A stretch of 64,000 nt of DNA from Candidatus Magasanikiibacteriota bacterium (GCA_026396515.1 JAPLWQ010000002.1:125575-189574), one strand, 5' to 3'; positions 3,001 through 51,034 are shown, counted from the stretch's first letter. A program made the numbers and translations. Notes: generated from the letters alone by a model not told the origin.

Positions 3001-4663
3001 TGGAAATAGTACCGGTGCCACTATTGCTTGTTGCATTATTTATGCGCAGACCAGCAGCATTAATAATCGTGCCTGCTTCAATATTAATATCTGACAACAA
3101 CGCCGTCGCATTGGTAATCGTACCGCCGCCAATCCCATTTTCCACATATCCGCTAAGACCGACGGCAACTCCAATACTCCCTGAATATGTCGGGTCATTC
3201 GATCCGTTCATTACCTGACCTCTCATGCCAAAAGCAAAACTAATACTACCAGTAGGGCTTTCCAATTCAACTGACGACACACTGCCAAATGCACCAGATA
3301 CAGCTCCGGTGCCTTGGTGAACTACCTGGGTCATGGTACCCCCGATCAGATCAAAATTGCCGGTACTATTCTGGTTCGTCGTCAGGGTCAACATTGAATT
3401 AATGGTCGAGGAAGAATCCGCGGTAGTATTAAGATCAATAGAATATACGTGGGCCGGTAAAAACGAATCGGCCGGTAAAGAATTGTATTGCTTATAAGTG
3501 CTCAGTAACACTTCATCAGCAATATACCCACTATCACCGATGGCCAAGTGAGAAATTGTTGTGCTGGCCAGCGTACTCGTTCCGGACACATTCAAATTAT
3601 TGTTGACGATAAGAGCGCCGGTCATTGTGTCGCCGGTTATATCAACCCAAAGATCAGTGGAGGTAGACAAAAAGCTGGAAGAGGTAAAGCCACTTGCTAC
3701 CAAGCTTGTACCGTCAAACCACAAAAATTCATAAGGCGAAAACGAAGAGGCGTTTGTGCCGCCGTTAATGATCGGCAAAGTACCGGAAACATCAGAAACG
3801 AGATTTATTGTAGATGTACCCCAAACACCGCCGGACAGTTTAATAAATCCGTTCCAGCCGGAAGTGTCTTGACCGGTACCGCCGTAGGCCGGAGATATAA
3901 TGCCTCCCTGCCAAGTGCCGCCATTAATTATCCCCAAAGTGGATGTGCCGGTAACAGTAAGATTGGCGAGAGATAAATTTGTGCCAGTCGCATTGCTAAA
4001 AGTGAAGTCCGTCAAGGTAAGCGGATTTATTAAAATCAGGTTAGTGATGGTGGTGGTGGCAAAAGTAGAATTGCCAATAACAGAAAGATTGCCGCTGATA
4101 CTTGACGTGGCGGTTGAAGAAGACAAGTTAATTCCGGCGCCGGAATATGAACCAGTGCCGATATTAAAACTTAAGTCATTGCCAAGAGCCAAAAGTTGAT
4201 TTGGCGTGGCCGTGCTGGTGGCGTGAAAACCGTCAACACGATCAGAATTAAGAGCGTATGGATGAGAATTTAATTTAACACGCGGGCTGGCTTCTGCATC
4301 AGTGGAAATTTTTACACCAAGATAGTATGACCCGCTAGAGAAATCAAGATAAGACGGGAATGAAACACAGTCACCCAAGGTAAGAGTAAAATATCCTTGA
4401 GGATCGGGTAATATTTGAGCGCAAGCACCGCTTCCCTGATCGTATGTTTCTGTCCATAGCAGTGACCCACTTTGAGACGGGACATCAATGGGCGAACCAT
4501 TAGTGAGATGATTGTAAATTGAAAATTGAATTGTTGTGGAAGCGGCAATCGGGGTACCGGAATTGTCTCGAAGACGGCCCTGATAGTTAACAGCATTTGG
4601 GATAGCTTCGGCCAGGTCGGAAAAAATAAAAAAAGTAGATAACAATACTGCAAAAATAAGCAT
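1..4663 (-). CDS. Giant repetitive secreted surface protein (partial; C-terminus lies beyond window start)
   Basis: Continuous minus-strand frame from ATG at 4663 to the window edge with no stop in my manual translation. The ORF track omits it only because there is no stop in-window. N-terminus is MLIFAVLLSTFFIFSDLAEA-IPNAVNYQGRLRDNSG (signal-peptide-like). A ~100-aa unit recurs (IGTSSTYELLTVAGGINIGATTTPTSTAGTIAWNG.DFIGY.G..W.SLTSG). Short NxAIGxxAL-type repeats near the window start resemble adhesin / tail-fibre head repeats. Confidence 0.6.
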   Translation of the reverse strand, partial: MLIFAVLLSTFFIFSDLAEAIPNAVNYQGRLRDNSGTPIAASTTIQFSIYNHLTNGSPIDVPSQSGSLLWTETYDQGSGACAQILPDPQGYFTLTLGDCVSFPSYLDFSSGSYYLGVKISTDAEASPRVKLNSHPYALNSDRVDGFHATSTATPNQLLALGNDLSFNIGTGSYSGAGINLSSSTATSSISGNLSVIGNSTFATTTITNLILINPLTLTDFTFSNATGTNLSLANLTVTGTSTLGIINGGTWQGGIISPAYGGTGQDTSGWNGFIKLSGGVWGTSTINLVSDVSGTLPIINGGTNASSFSPYEFLWFDGTSLVASGFTSSSFLSTSTDLWVDITGDTMTGALIVNNNLNVSGTSTLASTTISHLAIGDSGYIADEVLLSTYKQYNSLPADSFLPAHVYSIDLNTTADSSSTINSMLTLTTNQNSTGNFDLIGGTMTQVVHQGTGAVSGAFGSVSSVELESPTGSISFAFGMRGQVMNGSNDPTYSGSIGVAVGLSGYVENGIGGGTITNATALLSDINIEAGTIINAAGLRINNATSNSGTGTISNLYGLYIEEQTLGSDTNFNIYSAGTNSINYFAGNIGIGTTSPEHRLHIVDSENSIMQMMIQNTASGTTAGAALVVQSGNASGGLLMPSENFEYDSGYTNLAGYLTLTAEDNSNGIAMVATGGNKNIIFYTGGLNSSEPYPSTERMRVASTGQVSIGTSSTYELFTVAGGINIGATTTPTSTAGTIAWNGVDFIGYTGSVWVSLTSGSGTPAVPGIAGSGNTGEVTFWSNSSTIAGSSSLYWDNTNGFFGIGTYSPAYKLHISEDTDSILQTVVQNIANGTSTGAATIFEAGTSRGAVMMLGDNFEFGAGNTNLGGYLTLQALYDSNGIALVATGGSRNITFYTGGAGDPDPSTERMRIETNGNVAIGTSSTYERLTVAGGINIGATTTLSDTSGTIAFNGTDFIGYTGTEWLSLTATGTYFGGMNLQQVTDNGNVTTNSIQFAGGTSTAAFYLLNNLSVNGTSTLSTSTISRLIVGGGFPTEMPSDLNFNFASYKQYNHLSNTGSGLEIGNILGMDLNPDEDASTTLNAMFNVTTNESNSRNFDALAGIINQIQHRGSGTVGMAFGQMSTVDLETPTGSIWYALGLQGGVQNGINDASYAGVINNAVGLSGNIENGIGGGTIVNAAAINSSINIEAGTIGEAYGMRINNPTSGSSSGTIGKLYGLYIQEQNFATTSNYNIYSDGANSLNYFGGRMAIGTTSTYELLTVNGGINIGATTSPTSTAGTIAFNGLDFIGYNGSTWLSLTSGTGISGSGSAGQIAFWNASSTITGSSSLYWDNTNNYLGIGTSAPAEAIDVNGNIQISAGNYLKYNGVNLAYGSTTLMNYFFGDAGTSTMITSRNIGIGNLALRSNYNGYNNMAIGAEALRDNTSGSDNMAIGYSAMQFNTTGIQNTAIGTSALSGNIDGADNVAIGYGTLPLVVNTSGNTAIGFQAGQIFVGSNGLFLGIGADTLASASSSDNAIAIGKDAKVGGSNMMVLGGTGADAVSVGIGTSTPYERLT

Positions 4664-28515: not shown

Positions 28516-28587
28516 GTGCCCTCGGCGCGAATCGAACGCGCACCATCTCCTTCGGAGGGAGATATTCTATCCATTGAACTACGAGGA
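28516..28587 (-). tRNA. tRNA-Arg (anticodon CCG)
   Basis: Minus strand GUCCUCGUAGUUCAAUGGAUAGAAUAUCUCCCUCCGAAGGAGAUGGUGCGCGUUCGAUUCGCGCCGAGGGCA. 7-bp acceptor, T-loop UUCGAUU, anticodon loop CUCCGAA. Confidence 0.75.
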
Positions 28588-29577
28588 CTAAATCATCCGC
28601 CTTAAGGCCCGCAAACATCCATAAAATTTGTATCTCCAAGACGAAATGGAAAAATCAAACGTCCCCGGATCTTCCCGGTACTCACCGCCAAACCCCTGCT
28701 TAAACTTGGTCACGCCGGCATACTGATGATTATTATCATATTCATAATTGCCGTCCGCCTGCTGCCCGGTCTTGGGCGCTACACCAAAGAAATCATAAAA
28801 TTTGAAATCATACCTCTGACCCATTTTTATCCCTTCCCATTGGATCAAATATGGTGCCATTAAAGAACGGTGCTCGTAGTCGGATGCGCCAAATACATAA
28901 GTGAATGTATCCCCAAAACCGATGAAGACCGCAACAGCAATGGCCTTAGGTCCGTAATATACAGTGAGCTGGTGAGAAAGCGAAGAAAAAATAATTTCAT
29001 GATAATGCCGGGTTTCATGCAAGCGAAATTTATCACGCCTACCGGTTTCCTTCATCAGAGCCATAAATGCATCAGCATCTTTAGCATCACTAACGCGCAA
29101 ATCTTTTTTTTGCGCCAAATTAATATTGTACCGTGTTTTCTGATGCATATTGGCGAGCAGTTCATCAGGTGTATGCCTTAAACCCAAAATTAATGTCGCC
29201 CGCGGATTGAAATCAGGAACCTTTTCGGCGCCGGCGAAATTTCTCGACGGCTCAATTCTAAAAAAAATGCATTTTTTATCCGACAAATATTTTATCAATT
29301 CTTCGTTGATATTATTTATTGAACCCAACTCTAAATTCTTTTTATAAACCGGCCCCTTTGGGCAATACGCATATAGCCAGCCAAACGGCAATTTATGATA
29401 TTCGATAAGCGCCATTGCCACCGGTTCATTGTCGTCAAAAACAACCAGGCGCTCAATGTTTTTCCCTTCGCGCGATAATATCTCTTCCCATTCAAAGGAT
29501 TGGCAAAAAGGCGCCTTTTCAGCGTTTTCTTTTAGCCAGCTATTAACCATTTCATATTTTGTTTCAACTTTCAGCAT
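28588..29577 (-). CDS. FemAB-family peptidoglycan cross-bridge aminoacyltransferase-like protein
   Basis: 329 aa. Composition and motifs resemble FemX/FemAB (GNAT-like duplicated fold). By-eye call. Confidence 0.45.
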   Translation of the reverse strand: MLKVETKYEMVNSWLKENAEKAPFCQSFEWEEILSREGKNIERLVVFDDNEPVAMALIEYHKLPFGWLYAYCPKGPVYKKNLELGSINNINEELIKYLSDKKCIFFRIEPSRNFAGAEKVPDFNPRATLILGLRHTPDELLANMHQKTRYNINLAQKKDLRVSDAKDADAFMALMKETGRRDKFRLHETRHYHEIIFSSLSHQLTVYYGPKAIAVAVFIGFGDTFTYVFGASDYEHRSLMAPYLIQWEGIKMGQRYDFKFYDFFGVAPKTGQQADGNYEYDNNHQYAGVTKFKQGFGGEYREDPGTFDFSISSWRYKFYGCLRALRRMI

Positions 29578-29626
29578 ATTTTATTTTGCCAATTAATCTT
29601 ATCTCATTAACTGGATTTTAGCAATT

Positions 29627-29660
29627 GAAAATGAAAAGCGCGTCTCCGGGGAGACGCGCT
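29627..29660 (-). terminator. GC-rich palindromic hairpin (AGCGCGTCTCCGGGGAGACGCGCT) plus U-tract: terminator at the edge of GC island 2
   Basis: Perfect 11-bp-arm palindrome. Minus-strand U-rich tract follows (UUUUCAUUUUC). Confidence 0.5.
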
Positions 29661-29695
29661 ATACGGGTGTGGGGAGACGCGCTATACGGGTGTGG
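29650..29695. repeat. Tandem direct repeat, 2 full copies of a 23-nt unit GGAGACGCGCTATACGGGTGTGG (partial third copy)
   Basis: Copies at 29650-29672 and 29673-29695. The first copy overlaps the palindrome arm. Confidence 0.8.
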
Positions 29696-29706
29696 GGCGA
29701 CGCTCG

Positions 29707-29970
29707 TCATTCCAGGCGAGGAAGGACGAAACGTTGCCACCAGATTCCTGGTAAATCGACATCGGCGAGTTTATAGCACGAGTACAGCGAGGTCATGGCG
29801 CCAAGAACGTAAAACGTGGAAAACCATGGAGGGTGGTCAAACGCGCGTATGAATAGCCAGATGCCGACGACGAACAAAGCGATAATCGCGACCGATTGGA
29901 CCAGGACAACGCTTAATGTTGCCAGGCTGGAAACGATAACGAGCAGTGTTCTTTTTATCGCTTGTGCCAC
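29707..29970 (-). CDS. Small 2-TM membrane protein (GTG start, AAAGGAG SD), GC island 2
   Basis: 87 aa with two hydrophobic helices. GC-rich codon usage unlike the flanking genome. Confidence 0.45.
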   Translation of the reverse strand: MAQAIKRTLLVIVSSLATLSVVLVQSVAIIALFVVGIWLFIRAFDHPPWFSTFYVLGAMTSLYSCYKLADVDLPGIWWQRFVLPRLE

Positions 29971-30840
29971 AACAGCTCCTTTCTATCGGCGGCCCCTGGT
30001 ACAGGTAACCAGCACGATGACTGTGTTGAACGCTCCGATTTCTCCTCCTTTTTGATACATCATCATATGTGTTTTTATAAACAATGTCAATATTAAAAAA
30101 CCCCCCAATGAATCGGGGGGTTAGAAGGAACTGTGTTTGTTTTTTTTGGAGTGAGAGCTCCGTGCGCGTTCTCCTATGGAGTGTGACCGCCTCGGCGGTC
30201 ACTGGCACTCGGCATCCCTTTGGACATTTGTCCGCGGCCCGGGTTTTTCCCCGGTTCTCCTCTTGCCGCCGGCGTTTGGCTTCTTAGGCCATTAGGGGGA
30301 CGCCGTCCCTGGTTTATCACTTCCGGACTGGAAATGAAGACCACTTAATACCTCGTTCAGTTCTGACGGATCAGACCGGATCAGACAGCGGGATTACCCG
30401 CCAATCAGATCCCTGAACAAGAGTACCGCCAGGTAATTTTTGTTCCCCATTACAGGGGTCAAAGGTTGCCCGGCTACCTATCGCATCATTTTTTTCAGCG
30501 CGATGCGACACGCGCTCTTAGTTCTCGGGTCGTAGATCTATCGAGAAACATGGTAACCTCCTTCTGCGCCTGGGTTTGTTTTCAATGTTGTGTTTTTCCT
30601 TCTCACTGCGCCCGAACGTCTTCAGGGGCAGAATTAAAGGCCGAGATTCACGCGTTACTCGGCTTCGCGTCCACAGCGTGGATTCTCACAACTTTCGCCG
30701 GGGGGCATGTGATCTCCCCCACCCGTTCACGGGCGTTCGCTGATCTTGGCGTGTTGACGTCAGAGAAAGGGCATCTTTATCCTCCATTGCAGTGTTGTGG
30801 GTGACCGCGCCGCGTCGTTGCGCAGGTCAACCCTGTGTTG

Positions 30841-31279
30841 TCAGCCCGCCTTGGCCGCCGGCGCCTTCTTGGCGCTGCGGGACTTGGGGGCCGCCTTGGC
30901 CGCCGGCGCCGGGAGCTGAGCCACGGGGGCCTGCTCCGACACCGGGAGGTCGAGACCGCCGAAGATGTCGGCGAACGTCCCGAGGGCGGCCGACACGCGC
31001 TTCTCGCGCTTGGCCTCCCACTCCTCGATCGCGGCCGCGCTCTCGGAGAACCGGTAGAACATCCGCTCGAGGGGCTTGCCGGTGGTCTTGGCCACCAGCT
31101 TGGCGCGCTCGAGGATGCTCTCCTTGCACTCCCCGCAAGCCACGAACTCCGCCAGGTCCGCCACCTTCGCGGGGCGTCCGAGCTTGCGGTCGATCTTGCG
31201 CAGCGGCGGCACGAACGCGTGTGCCTCGTCCATCTCAGCGCCGCAACCGTCCACGATACACACCAATTTCTTGGACATG
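30841..31279 (-). CDS. Zinc-ribbon protein with Ala/Lys/Pro-rich basic C-terminal tail (histone-H1-like tail), GC island 2
   Basis: Strong SD AAGGAGG 5 nt upstream of ATG at 31279 (MSKKLVCIVDGCGAEMDE...FVACGECKES). C-terminus APAAKAAPKSRSAKKAPAAKAG. The ORF-track N-terminal extension to 31338 is probably not translated. Confidence 0.5.
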
Positions 31280-31698
31280 CTATCCTCCTTGTGCCCGCGT
31301 GAATCGCGAGCGGTTGTTATGAGAGCTTCAACGCTCAATAAAAGGTTGGTGTTAATTTGTAATTCTTTAGACAGATCAATCAGATACTATCTCTACACTG
31401 CAACCCTTTATTTAGCGCTAAAACTCGATGTAAGGAACAAAAAACCTCTGTTTGAGAGAGGCTAAAATCGTTCGCTTTACCTTATTTCCCTCTCTCAGGA
31501 AATTAGGCATATTTTCAGCATAACGGATTAGTATAGCATATTTTTACCCTTTTGTCAAGACCCTGCCTAACAAAACGCTTTTTTACCTAAAATAAGCCAA
31601 AAGACGACACGACTTGCAAAAACTACGGTTTTATTGTATAATAAAGGCCGATTTTACAATCAATCAAGATTTAGGTATTTGAAATTAGATATATCCAT

Positions 31699-31911
31699 AT
31701 GGGTTTACCAGGCCATCGAAGAACATCATCGCACAAACGACGCCGCGCAGCGCATTTTGCTTTATCAGAGAAAACATATAACCTCTGTCCGAAATGTCAG
31801 AAACCGGTCAGACCGCACCGCGCCTGCGGATTTTGCGGAACCTACCGCGGATCACAGGTAATAAGCGTAAAACGCCAAACCGCCCGCGCCGCCAAAAAAG
31901 CGAAAAAATAA
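31699..31911 (+). CDS. rpmF: 50S ribosomal protein L32
   Basis: 70 aa. HRRTSSHKRRRAAHFAL and zinc ribbon CPKC...CGFCG. Confidence 0.8.
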   Translation: MGLPGHRRTSSHKRRRAAHFALSEKTYNLCPKCQKPVRPHRACGFCGTYRGSQVISVKRQTARAAKKAKK

Positions 31912-31964
31912 ATTTGGTTGAGGGGGCGAACAAATAATATTTTTGTCTTTTCACATTAAAAAAT

Positions 31965-32432
31965 ATGTCCAACCGCCATCTGGCGCGCAGTATCGCCATG
32001 CAAACAATGTTTGAATGGGATTTTCGAGGACAAGATAATGAGCGCCTGCCGGCTATTCTTGAACACAGCCTGGCTGAATTCGGCGAAGGACTGACAGAAA
32101 AAGAATTTACTGTGAATTTAATTAACGGTGTTATTGCAAATCTGAAAAAAATTGATAAGATTATTACTGAATACGCACCTGACTGGCCGATTGAACAGAT
32201 TACCGTAGTGGACCGAAATATTTTGCGCTTAGGCATATACGAATTGGCTTTTGCCAAAGAAGTACCGCCAAAAGTGGCAATTAATGAGGCGATAGAATTA
32301 GCCAAAGGATTTGGCGGACCTTCATCGGGAAAATTCGTCAACGGGGTGCTTGGCGCGATATTCAAAAATATGGCGCCGGAGGAGACAAAAAGCGAAAGTG
32401 GAAAAGCGGAAGATAATAAAACAAATGAATAA
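31965..32432 (+). CDS. nusB: Transcription antitermination factor NusB
   Basis: 155 aa. [18 protein letters not shown]...KFVNGVLG matches the NusB C-terminal signature. Confidence 0.8.
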
Positions 32433-49816: not shown

Positions 49817-50311
49817 CTACTGAATAAGCACATTCATGTCGTCGCAAAAGTTGAAGGAACCGAAGGTGTCACCCAGCAAATCGGAGCAGGTGTACTGGAG
49901 CAGGTCGCCCTCGCCCAAGTAGACGCTGATCACGAGCTGGTCGCCCTTGCCGAAGGTTGCGATCTCATTGTCGTCGCCGTCCGGCCAGAGACAGTTCTCA
50001 ACCACTAACCCTCCGGTGGTGTCGTTGTCCACGGAAACGATCACCGTGGCATCGTTACCGTTTTCGAACTGGACTTCGATACCCTCACCGTGTTCGAAAA
50101 CAAACCGGACAAGCACCGAGCAGACCTCCACCTCGGCGTACTCGCGGTCAGAACCGCTCGTGTCTGCATCGGCTTCGTCGCCCTGCGTGGTGTTAATCAC
50201 CGTTGTCTCCGGCTCCGGGACGATATCCTGCACGCCGCATGACACGGCACAGACGATCCCGAGGAACATCCAGGCGCGAAAAACGTACTGCATGAGGTCG
50301 TAAATTCGCAC
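49817..50311 (-). CDS. Putative lipoprotein, acidic (GC island 3)
   Basis: GAGGAG SD 7 nt upstream of a GTG start (MRIYDLMQYVFRAWMFLGIVCAVSCG). Signal peptide with lipobox-like AVSC. Asp/Glu-rich mature domain. The ORF-track N-terminal extension to 50371 is unlikely. Confidence 0.5.
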   Translation of the reverse strand: MRIYDLMQYVFRAWMFLGIVCAVSCGVQDIVPEPETTVINTTQGDEADADTSGSDREYAEVEVCSVLVRFVFEHGEGIEVQFENGNDATVIVSVDNDTTGGLVVENCLWPDGDDNEIATFGKGDQLVISVYLGEGDLLQYTCSDLLGDTFGSFNFCDDMNVLIQ

Positions 50312-50464
50312 GATTTTTCTCCTCTCTTTTTTACGGCCATTTGGCCGTTTCGTTGATAGTAAAAGGAACAAAGAATAGTATCACGAATTATCGGAATTGT
50401 CAACCACTATGAAAAGAACAAGCCCGGCATGAGTAGCCGGGCTTGGGAAATGAACGAGAATGAA

Positions 50465-51034
50465 TCAAACGTGCGGGAAGAAAGACTGTCCGATGCAGTC
50501 CGGTTCGCCGTTGTTTTTCAAACAGCAGGCGGGTGTGAACGGATAATGTGTCGGACAGGCCGGCGGCGGGTAGTTTGAGCCGCAAGCGGGTAGGGTATCA
50601 GCCCAATTCCACTCCACCGGAGACCAGTAATCACAGCCGCCGAGATCAAACGAATCGCAACTCAACTCTTCGGACGGACCGTCATCCCAGCAGTACCAGA
50701 ACTGATCGGATCCGGGATAGGTCGGCGGATAGCAGGTATGCGTCTCATAGCCGCAAACCTCTTCCTCGCCGCACTCATCGGCCGTCTCGCAGACTGTAGG
50801 CTCGGTATCGGTGTCTGTGTCGGTGTCGGAACCAGCATCGGCGTCCGTATCCGAATCAGAGTCCGTATCCGTGTCGGAGTCAGTGTCGATATCGGAGTCC
50901 GTATCGGAATCAATGTCGGAATCGGTGTCCGAGTCCGAATCGCCGTCACTGCTTGCGTCTGCTACTGTGTACTCTTGTTGGACCCCACAACCAAGAACCA
51001 GAACTGAACATACGAGGACAAATGTGTTACGCAT
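50465..51034 (-). CDS. Lipoprotein with (Ser-Asp/Thr-Asp)n acidic repeat and Cys-rich C-terminal domain (GC island 3)
   Basis: 189 aa. MRNTFVLVCSVLVLGCG lipobox, then DSDSDTDSDIDSDTDSDIDTDSDTDTDSDSDTDADAGSDTDTDTDTE. C-terminal 16-Cys domain (CETADECGEEEVCGYETHTCYPP...CCLKNNGEPDC). Own hairpin terminator at ~50420-50445. Confidence 0.65.
   Translation of the reverse strand: MRNTFVLVCSVLVLGCGVQQEYTVADASSDGDSDSDTDSDIDSDTDSDIDTDSDTDTDSDSDTDADAGSDTDTDTDTEPTVCETADECGEEEVCGYETHTCYPPTYPGSDQFWYCWDDGPSEELSCDSFDLGGCDYWSPVEWNWADTLPACGSNYPPPACPTHYPFTPACCLKNNGEPDCIGQSFFPHV

Follow-up and report, generated by a model that had tools for sequence, protein, structure and literature searches.

The stretch of DNA analyzed here, referred to as the window, comprises 64,000 nt of Candidatus Magasanikiibacteriota (GCA_026396515.1, JAPLWQ010000002.1:125575-189574) from a Candidatus Magasanikbacteria metagenome-assembled genome (MAG) and has about 45% GC. 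All coordinates are counted within the window, and most of the features lie on the minus strand. Between rpmF, which encodes ribosomal protein L32, and a femAB-like gene lies a GC-rich segment (island 2) containing the gene for a 145-aa four-cysteine protein, named ZnR. An earlier reading made from the sequence alone (the sequence-only reading) had taken island 2 for foreign DNA inserted near a tRNA gene, with scars at its boundary. Comparison with homologous loci indicates instead that island 2 is likely to be native to Magasanikbacteria-like members of the Candidate Phyla Radiation (CPR), as a lineage-restricted locus inherited vertically, fixed between rpmF and the femAB-like gene and consisting of two minus-strand units (Table 1). 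In the proposed order, the first unit would begin with a promoter and a structured leader of about 250 nt, continue with ZnR and a mini open reading frame (ORF) followed by a double-pseudoknot RNA, which carries an extension of about 500 nt here, and stop at a terminator. The second unit would have its own promoter, a stub of the membrane-protein gene TM1, an intact TM2, and a palindrome acting as the terminator.

Table 1. Coordinates of the features assigned to the ZnR locus (SD, Shine-Dalgarno sequence; aa, amino acids)
Feature	Position	Strand	Basis or detail
Sigma-70-type promoter of ZnR, TTGACA-17 nt-TATACT with extended -10 TG	31558..31530	minus	11/12 consensus match
Leader part 1, attenuator-like RNA	31528..31429	minus	terminator call and RNAalifold consensus
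Leader part 2: GC hairpin (31310..31294) directly ahead of the SD, preceded by a long stem (about 31427..31322)	31427..31294	minus	
SD of ZnR, AAGGAGGA	31290..31283	minus	
ZnR gene, 145 aa and stop	31278..30841	minus	ORF, SD, and codon-position GC
SD (GGAGGA) and putative mini-ORF (ATG CCC TTT CTC TGA; MPFL and stop)	30785..30780 and 30774..30760	minus	
3' structured RNA core, about 120 nt	30759..30639	minus	covariation, model R1
Core helices P1, P3, and P4	30751..30738; 30720..30701; 30682..30670	minus	
Pseudoknot 1, P3 loop UCACA with UGUGA	UGUGA inside 30694..30685	minus	
H-type pseudoknot 2, stems S1 and S2	S1, 30669..30666 with 30654..30651; S2, 30663..30658 with 30645..30640	minus	
Lineage-specific structured extension with second SD, 17-codon ORF, and 10-nt tandem	30637..30125	minus	fold z = -5.4
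Intrinsic terminator of the ZnR transcript, AACCCCCCGATTCATTGGGGGGTT and T-run	30122..30093	minus	
Promoter of the small-membrane-protein operon, TTGACA-17 nt-TATGAT	30090..30062	minus	11/12 match
TM1 remnant, last ~20 codons (ending GAFNTVIVLVTCTRGRR and stop), fused to the old SD, no ATG	30078..29983	minus	
TM2, 87-aa hydrophobic protein, GTG start, SD AAAGGAG	29970..29707	minus	
Intrinsic terminator of TM2 (the palindrome)	29660..29627	minus	10-bp stem, 4-nt loop, then TTTCATTTTC

The homologous loci compared with the window are designated by L-numbers. L007 belongs to a Magasanikbacteria MAG from a separate study, and its FemAB is 76% identical to that of the window; L110 was obtained from an NCBI MAG assembly, and L001, L005, L087/88, L089-91, L112, and L113/114 are contigs of various Logan, ENA, and JGI runs.

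The GC content is 0.61-0.78 over positions 30800-31300, compared with about 0.31-0.46 in the flanks, and this peak coincides with ZnR. The sequence-only reading had described a 146-aa protein at 30841..31279 preceded by a strong SD. The gene call and the SD were both confirmed, but the gene, on the minus strand, starts at 31278 and encodes 145 aa, and a start at 31279 gives a frame error. The protein corresponds to NCBI NTW66_01210, encoded on a contig of 328,883 bp. ZnR has a GC content of 0.70, with 0.66, 0.50, and 0.93 at the first, second, and third codon positions (GC1, GC2, and GC3), compared with a GC3 of 0.44-0.51 in the neighboring genes; because of this periodicity across the codon positions, the ORF is considered truly coding. 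The CxxxxC...CxxC pattern at the N-terminus was confirmed and is of a putative zinc-binding type: the four cysteines (C7-x4-C12 ... C48-x2-C51) are invariant in a family alignment of nine sequences, as are P24, R35, and L42, and the region is modeled with a predicted local distance difference test (pLDDT) score above 90. In the AlphaFold (AF2) model, residues 1-107 are ordered, with block-mean pLDDT values of 86-95 over residues 1-90, and their fold comprises paired zinc knuckles, inserted helices, and, C-terminally, a long helix. The Ala/Lys/Pro-rich tail described earlier is present at residues 109-145 and is predicted to be disordered. However, its likeness to histone H1 and to proteins typical of high-GC bacteria is one of composition only, the tail being of low complexity.

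Homology to Hc1, HU/Hlp, or AlgP-type proteins was not detected: the window ZnR has no match in Pfam or NCBIfam, the nine family members have none in Pfam, and there is no profile match in PDB. Searches of Pfam, PHROG, NCBIfam, and PADLOC placed ZnR in no family above the cut-off, and its fold gave no match in PDB or BFVD. The suggestion of an anti-sigma-like protein was not supported either, since ZnR does not show the combination of an HxxxCxxC motif and an adjacent sigma-factor gene by which zinc-binding anti-sigma (ZAS) proteins are recognized. As for the target of a diversity-generating retroelement, no second ZnR copy was found in 29-32 kb and no local ORF resembles a reverse transcriptase, the rest of the window not having been searched. 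ZnR is an orphan family without structural or family assignment, whose members combine a putative zinc finger with a core of helices and a disordered tail of basic character. Most ZnR homologs end in K-x-A/V-A/S-G(K/R)? just before the stop codon (KAG, KTG, KAAG, AVAG, QVAG, VSGR; positions 30844-30852 in the window), and a short conserved motif (APVAQLP / V..HPT) lies further upstream in the disordered tail; both look like short linear motifs for interaction or processing.

The family is found in few places, and most of these have the same gene order. A HMMER search of 1.84 billion representative proteins gave 13 ZnR matches, three of which were long low-complexity proteins, and a profile search added a few further homologs. 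On one side of the homologs are rpmF (L32), nusB, and rnc, and on the other side are small membrane proteins and femAB-like, NUDIX, and gyrA genes, which is the layout of the window. This layout was found in L001, L005, L007, L089-91, L110/111, L112, and L113/114, that is, in at least eight CPR lineages beyond the window, and every recovered related locus spanning the L32-femAB junction holds a ZnR homolog, with no empty site. Among 80 loci found through the femAB-like neighbor, only L007 carries ZnR. The contigs of the fetched homologous loci range from AT-rich to 51% GC, most of them with L32/NusB/RNase III/FemAB neighbors, and a second ZnR sub-family adjoins DEAD/UvrD helicases. Amino acid identity of ZnR between lineages is only 26-48%.

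The features at the femAB side of the island, which had been read as marks of an insertion, were also compared between loci. The 87-aa membrane protein noticed earlier (TM2) is a real gene and an ortholog of an 88-aa protein of L007 (46% identity, tblastn E 2e-21), and homologous genes of 88-89 aa are present in L005, L089, and L112. None of the Pfam families reaches its curated cut-off with TM2, and TM1, TM2, and the spurious ORFs gave nothing above the cut-off in protein family libraries. TM1 is intact (94-101 aa) in L001, L005, L007, L089, L110, and L112, and the window has no other copy of it. When TM1 of L007 was searched against the window by tblastn, only query residues 63-94 were aligned (E 8e-4), and the window TM1 appears to be a deletion remnant. 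Upstream of these genes, the order of the ZnR terminator followed by TTGACA is the same in L007, L089, L005, L110, and L112.

The "perfect 24-nt palindrome" reported at 29637-29660 is present, but it is not perfect, as its 11-nt arms surround a GG that is not self-complementary. It is unique in the window, where 0 are expected by shuffling, and it is predicted to be the TM2 terminator, with 7 GC in the 10-bp stem and a position 47 nt past the TM2 stop; terminators of other sequence occupy the same site before the femAB promoter in L007 and L005. The 23-nt repeat was confirmed as 2.4 copies at 29648-29703 (Tandem Repeats Finder score 105), and its unit has no other occurrence in the window (0 expected by shuffling). 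Each unit carries, on the minus strand, a copy of the 5' arm of the terminator (AGCGCGTCTCCCC), and the repeat is absent from L007, which has a single terminator hairpin in its place. The repeat is therefore best described as a probable slippage duplication of the 5' arm of the TM2 terminator, specific to the window, and not as an att scar. Thus, of the proposed terminator-plus-repeat scars at an insertion boundary, the terminator was retained and the insertion scar was not.

Recent acquisition of an islet from a donor of high GC, with insertion beside femAB and tRNA-Arg and with the palindrome and the repeat as scars, would explain the sharp GC step with a GC3 of 0.93, the Ala/Lys/Pro-rich tail, and the repeat at one edge, and a GC-rich gene for a major vault protein (MVP) homolog elsewhere in the window (island 1) does have thousands of homologs in other phyla. 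We nevertheless consider this origin very improbable. The same slot and the same GC excess occur in the eight or more further lineages despite protein divergence to about 30% identity, the non-coding RNA on either side of the GC-rich part is AT-rich to moderate in GC and is itself conserved along with the host lineage, and L007 has the terminator but not the repeat. No att-like direct repeats link the edges at 29.6 kb and 31.3 kb in a repeat search of 29000-32000, and no recombinase, integrase, or transposase was identified with Pfam and PHROG on the four longest island ORFs (ORFs were listed from 20 aa upward in 29980-30845 and from 40 aa upward in 27-34 kb). A donor was not apparent in the collections searched: the loci fetched after the search of representative proteins include no ZnR homolog in a recognizably high-GC organism, blastn against phage and plasmid collections gave no match, and scans of viral contigs by protein and RNA pattern returned chance matches only, with covariance model (CM) scores of at most 13 bits.

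The distances given in the sequence-only reading are correct (femAB-like start at 29577; tRNA-Arg(CCG) at 28516-28588), and the whole femAB-like gene separates the island from the tRNA gene. With genomic islands at tRNA genes, the locus shares a compositional discontinuity, short repeats at one edge, and a tRNA within about 1 kb. It differs from them in having no recombinase, no flanking direct repeats, and no evident donor, in being syntenic in all related lineages found, and in the housekeeping-type gene that stands between the tRNA gene and the island. None of the defining properties of a genomic island for which the locus was tested is present. The sequence-only reading had itself stated that homologs with similar local GC in related CPR genomes would make the island native, and such syntenic homologs, sharing the GC excess, are what we found. 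An assembly or binning chimera, with high-GC reads mis-joined into a CPR contig, could also produce discordant composition in a metagenome-assembled genome. However, many samples and projects yielded the same architecture in separate assemblies, each time with host-like sequence on both sides, and because of these independent assemblies a chimera is ruled out for practical purposes.

The GC excess itself accompanies ZnR in every locus examined. The GC3 of ZnR is far above that of its surroundings in 12 of 12 distinct loci (0.50-0.96 vs 0.24-0.68 in neighboring genes). Next to the value of the window given above, it is 0.96 in L007 (neighbors 0.38-0.45), 0.91 in L110 (0.30-0.39), 0.88 in L112 (0.50-0.57), 0.83 in L113 (0.47-0.53), 0.81 in L005 (0.58-0.68), 0.79 in L004 (0.37-0.65), 0.76 in L003 (0.32-0.38), and 0.50 in L001 (0.24-0.32); for L087 (0.93), L089 (0.80), and L092 (0.71), the overall GC of the rest of the contig (0.50, 0.46, and 0.39, respectively) served as the only comparison. 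Because the proteins are so divergent between lineages, the synonymous sites of ZnR must have been replaced many times, and therefore the excess has been maintained and is not the leftover of a transfer. C and G are raised equally at third positions. In the closely related trio of L005, L089, and L098, about 31 W and 123 S third-position sites have undergone 8 polarized changes from A/T to G/C (W>S) and 15 in the opposite direction (S>W). This implies an equilibrium GC3 of about 0.7, although the numbers are small; ZnR GC3 in this trio is near equilibrium, with no rapid decay. The GC excess is thus a long-maintained property of the ZnR gene with no sign of recent transfer, and the locus is a counter-example to the reading of sharp GC islands as recent horizontal transfer. 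A gene of about 450 bp that keeps its GC3 0.25-0.55 above the genome needs a maintaining force, which could be biased conversion or selection at the RNA level. We know of no described counterpart to such a maintained GC3 anomaly of a single gene.

Two explanations of this force were considered, both of which concern the cause of the GC excess and leave the anatomy of the locus as described. In the first, ZnR is a diversifying allele that undergoes repeated exchange by homologous recombination, with the conserved leader and 3' RNA as arms, and GC-biased gene conversion (gBGC) at this hot spot raises its GC3. Between the window and L007, the nonsynonymous divergence (dN) of ZnR is 0.62 and the synonymous divergence (dS) is 0.53, giving a dN/dS of about 1.2, whereas the dN of the neighbors is 0.02-0.16. 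The relationships of ZnR are also incongruent with those of its flanks, as the window protein is 48% identical to that of L087 and 39% identical to that of L007, yet the flanks are closest to L007. The symmetric rise of C and G at third positions fits a W>S bias and not tRNA-driven codon choice. However, the incongruence may be a mere rate acceleration in L007, and in the L005 clade ZnR is slow, with a dN/dS of 0.19 in the L005-L089 pair and a dS no higher than that of the neighbors, yet its GC3 is 0.8; ZnR is under purifying selection in this clade. To our knowledge, gBGC of such strength has never been demonstrated in bacteria. The closest framework is the gBGC hypothesis for bacterial GC3, a link between recombination and GC3 that has been proposed (Lassalle et al. 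2015, PMC4450053). The ZnR case shares with it the local GC3 excess, the equal rise of C and G, and signs of exchange or rapid turnover, and differs in that an excess of +0.25 to +0.55 GC3 in a single gene of about 450 bp over deep divergence is well beyond the genome-wide correlations presented there. On balance, an exchanged cassette remains a doubtful explanation of the excess.

In the second explanation, which seems unlikely to us, selection acts on the mRNA as a stable structured transcript that is either bifunctional or resistant to A/U-specific endoribonucleases. Both untranslated regions (UTRs) are strongly structured (z = -7.4 and -5.4), the coding sequence (CDS) of the window ZnR folds better than shuffles (z = -3.3), and the divergence at four-fold sites is lower in ZnR than in the neighbors (0.32 vs 0.34-0.63, and 0.22 vs 0.27-0.38). 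However, the z of the L007 CDS is only -1.6, a lower four-fold divergence is expected anyway if only C and G are used, and no conserved base pairs were identified inside the ZnR CDS, for which no in-depth search was made.

Downstream of ZnR lies the structured RNA that carries most of the comparative evidence. An SD and an ORF of 4-6 codons are found about 50-70 nt past the ZnR stop in all nine lineages, that is, in every lineage but L001, and the predicted peptides are MPFL, MPFP, MMPFY, MPFP, MPFL, MPFL, MHWPER, MIFPL, and MPFY. The core of about 120 nt follows. In the nine aligned sequences, 225 of 225 cells are paired, and 20 of the 28 pairs show compensatory changes, both pseudoknots included (S1, 2/4; S2, 5/7; loop-3' pseudoknot, 2/5; no unpaired cell); P1 was dropped from this count, having been shifted by MAFFT. 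A version with six sequences gave standard pairs in 179 of 179 cells and compensatory changes in 20 of 32 pairs. The changes include CGCG/CGCG to UGCG/CGCA and CGCC/GGCG, and pseudoknot 1 changes from UCACA/UGUGA to CCACA/UGUGG in L112 and to UCACC/GGUGA in L113. The alignments were fitted by hand, since MAFFT and CM alignments mis-registered several helices. None of 500 shuffles reached any of the five measures used for the core, and controls in which the partner was slid along the sequence paired in 30-54%.

A CM (R1) built from six sequences scored 89 bits at 30788..30638. It gave one match per ZnR locus and none elsewhere, either in about 700 kb of CPR DNA or in the metagenome and viral contigs selected by pattern matching, and it located the core right after ZnR in three lineages that had not been used for building (54, 46, and 23 bits). 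Rfam 15 was applied to the whole window at gathering thresholds and, with E limits of 10 or 1, to 29500-31500, 31270-31720, and five related loci; among its 4227 models, none matched the 3' core at E <=10 beyond terminator-like chance scores far below threshold. In the helicase-linked ZnR sub-family, the pseudoknot RNA is absent (L003 2613-2790; L092 5820-5900), and a conserved hairpin pair lies downstream together with a small ORF starting M(K/A)YY(I/V)VDGVV, which has 24 aa in L003.

The 3' core shares the S1/L1/S2/L2/S1'/L3/S2' topology of H-type pseudoknots such as preQ1, SAM-II, fluoride, and the frameshift stimulators, with both stems covarying here. It differs in being part of a fold of about 120 nt with a second, loop-to-3' pseudoknot, and in lying in a 3' UTR past a mini-ORF. 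The slippery-site geometry of frameshift stimulators is missing, and -1 frameshifting at CCCUUUC of the mini-ORF was rejected, the heptamer being out of frame or not conserved and the pseudoknot lying more than 100 nt away. The mini-ORF recalls the leader peptides ErmCL/ErmDL, TnaC, cat, and cmlA in its strong SD, its tiny ORF with a partly conserved peptide (M-P-F-x, 7/9), and its stop codon, located 8-12 nt ahead of an RNA structure that would be unfolded by a ribosome terminating there. It differs from them by following the gene, by the absence of a sequestered downstream SD, and by the lack of peptide conservation in L110. We put forward, as a tentative idea, that a ribosome finishing translation of the mini-ORF, 8-12 nt ahead of P1, may remodel the 3' RNA.

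The fold could alternatively belong to the genes behind it, as a 5'-UTR riboswitch or attenuator that senses a small molecule and controls the membrane-protein genes. It has the size of a riboswitch, it is pseudoknotted, an intrinsic terminator follows it in L007, L089, L112, and L113, and small membrane proteins lie downstream in most lineages. However, a near-consensus promoter stands between the terminator and TM1 in every TM1-bearing lineage, L113 has the element without TM genes, the window has the element with TM1 destroyed, and the aptamer-like core showed no alternative pairing with the terminator. We regard such a riboswitch as quite unlikely and assign the 3' RNA to the ZnR transcript.

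The 5' leader of ZnR is the second conserved RNA. Its predicted promoter core, CTTGACAAAA..AAAAT(A/G)TGCTATACT, is near-identical in L007, L001, L005, L090, L087, and L112, and L110 and L113 have a variant -10 (TATTAT / TATAAT). On the other strand, a promoter-like site for rpmF (L32), TTGCAA-17 nt-TATAAT at 31614-31642 plus, is well conserved with L007, and because it stands back to back with the ZnR promoter, the 140-nt spacer is taken to be a divergent promoter region. The leader is about 84% identical to that of L007 over about 250 nt, and the non-coding flanks are about 82-84% identical; in the neighboring genes of the same pair, the four-fold sites are saturated (dS about 1-6). The 250-nt leader folds with -89 kcal/mol (z = -7.4 vs shuffles).

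In leader part 1, UGAGAGAG (31497..31490) lies either in a hairpin loop or paired with CUCUCUCA (31460..31453), and CUCUCUCA is also the 5' arm of a predicted intrinsic terminator (31463..31443) with its U-run. The GAGAGAG:CUCUCUC pairing (8 bp, one compensatory change) was chosen by the RNAalifold consensus in four lineages. Judged by its sequence, the leader appears to have the architecture of a transcription attenuator, in which the terminator and a conserved antiterminator pairing are mutually exclusive, and the two folds would give either premature termination at about 95 nt or read-through. Long hairpins equivalent to leader part 2, of other sequence, are present in L001, L005, and L110. 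The CM of the leader (R2) scored 108 bits in the window and matched only upstream of ZnR in L007, L087/88, and L001; among loci unused for building, it found the leader in L110 and L112 only. The leader (31270-31720) had no Rfam match at permissive E.

With PyrR and ribosomal-protein leaders, the ZnR leader shares a strong promoter, a purine-rich GAGAG loop, an antiterminator, and a terminator ahead of the ORF. It differs in having no match to the Rfam PyrR model and in an extra conserved stem of about 130 nt between the terminator and the SD. Within the leader, UCCUGAGAGAGG resembles UCCAGAGAGG, which we take to be the PyrR site, and this is a lead only. A contact between the 5' and 3' UTRs was also considered, as the hairpin at 31308..31296 is complementary over 12/13 nt to 30654..30642 (S1'/L3/S2'). 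It is absent in L007, L087, and L005, and the complementarity between 31296-31308 and 30642-30654 was treated as chance because it is specific to the window.

Behind the core, the loci diverge. In L007, L089, L112, and L113 the core leads straight to the terminator, and extensions of several hundred nt are present in L005, L110, and L087 as in the window; equivalent terminators past the 3' RNA were found in L007, L089, L005, L110, L112, and L113. From the ZnR stop to the terminator, the window, L005, and L110 have about 720-810 nt of non-coding sequence, and no ORF longer than 56 aa is present on the minus strand of the extension region in the window. The L005 and L110 extensions are homologous over about 490 nt (E 3e-28), and that of the window gave no alignment with those of L005, L110, or L087. 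Like OLE, GOLLD, ROOL, HEARO, and raiA, the 3' tract is long and strongly structured (window, L005, and L110) and is conserved between L005 and L110. It differs from these RNAs in having no sequence or model similarity to them, in being co-transcribed behind a protein gene, and in its long part being dispensable.

The long extensions also carry a second strong SD with a short ORF, namely MFLDRSTTRELRARVASR and stop in the window (30490-30551 minus), MRLT in L005 (~2897-2911), and MFRRKI in L087 (~1450-1490); these ORFs lie about 270-350 nt past the ZnR stop, and their peptides are not conserved. A perfect 2 x 10-nt tandem at 30367-30386 (CGGATCAGAC, plus strand) is present in the window extension, and a 2 x 13-nt tandem (ATAGTCCACAATC) is present in the L005 extension at ~3010-3036, at a roughly similar distance from the core. 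These tandems may be repeated binding sites or a coincidence.

Taken with its 5' and 3' RNAs, the locus resembles an RNA-regulated small-protein operon, and among the described RNA and protein families against which it could be tested, it belongs to none. It comes closest to protein-dependent attenuators, H-type pseudoknot aptamers, leader-peptide sensors, and large lineage-restricted non-coding RNAs. We found nothing specific in the literature on CPR structured RNAs or GC-rich CPR genes. By analogy with ribosomal proteins and PyrR, ZnR, with its putative zinc finger and basic tail, might bind nucleic acid, probably RNA, and act back on the leader or the 3' RNA of its own transcript, a possibility that we raise with reserve. 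A broader and more speculative proposal is that the ZnR transcript is a bifunctional RNA-protein module of a CPR subgroup, whose 3' part (up to about 810 nt) would be a new class of functional RNA, ligand- or ribosome-sensing or catalytic and gated by the mini-ORF, and whose GC3 would be actively maintained by biased conversion or RNA selection. If this is true, the locus is a compositional island without horizontal transfer and a natural test case for bacterial gBGC.

Several observations weigh against a native locus organized in this way. The ZnR family is rare, with about 20 clusters. L001 has ZnR without the 3' element and the GAGAGAG attenuator is missing from the L005 clade, so neither RNA is obligatory for ZnR, and L110, with MHWPER, departs from the usual peptide of the mini-ORF. 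Because the 3'-core alignment was fitted by hand to the structure, the pairing counts lean towards that structure, although the three loci that were added only once the model had been settled reduce this bias in part. The fast divergence of ZnR between the window and L007 could mean relaxed constraint, and not function, in that sub-clade. In addition, the promoters, the terminators, the translation of the mini-ORF, and the attenuation are all predictions from sequence. Nevertheless, the comparisons between loci establish that gene order and RNA structures are conserved and that the high GC3 has been maintained, and they support the roles assigned to the terminators. Although the whole analysis is computational, both the new structured RNAs and the compositional anomaly are solidly supported. 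The native reading of island 2 yields two undescribed structured RNAs from the poorly studied CPR, linked to an orphan zinc-finger family, for which CMs have been built. It also corrects the annotation of the MAG, in which the palindrome becomes a terminator, TM1 a remnant, and about 1 kb of "intergenic" DNA probably a functional RNA.

Other GC-rich genes are present in the window. Island 1 (14021-16537 minus) encodes the 838-aa bacterial homolog of the major vault protein mentioned above (Pfam MVP_shoulder 6e-29, Vault_3), with a GC3 of 0.89, and its thousands of homologs, with 52-58% identity, come from Eremiobacterota, Planctomycetota, Desulfobacterales, and other groups. In the sister contig L105 (86% identical), the gene has the same synteny (382-aa gene, T2SSE), with a GC3 of 0.87 vs 0.42-0.53. 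Unlike for island 2, a foreign origin is plausible for island 1. Two further ORFs on the minus strand, 49820-50293 and 50468-51034, have raised GC3 values of 0.77 and 0.62 (median of the window, 0.44) and match no Pfam family; both adjoin tandem repeats of 6/12/18/30 nt at 50802-50942, and the region 49820-51034 may be a third compositional island.

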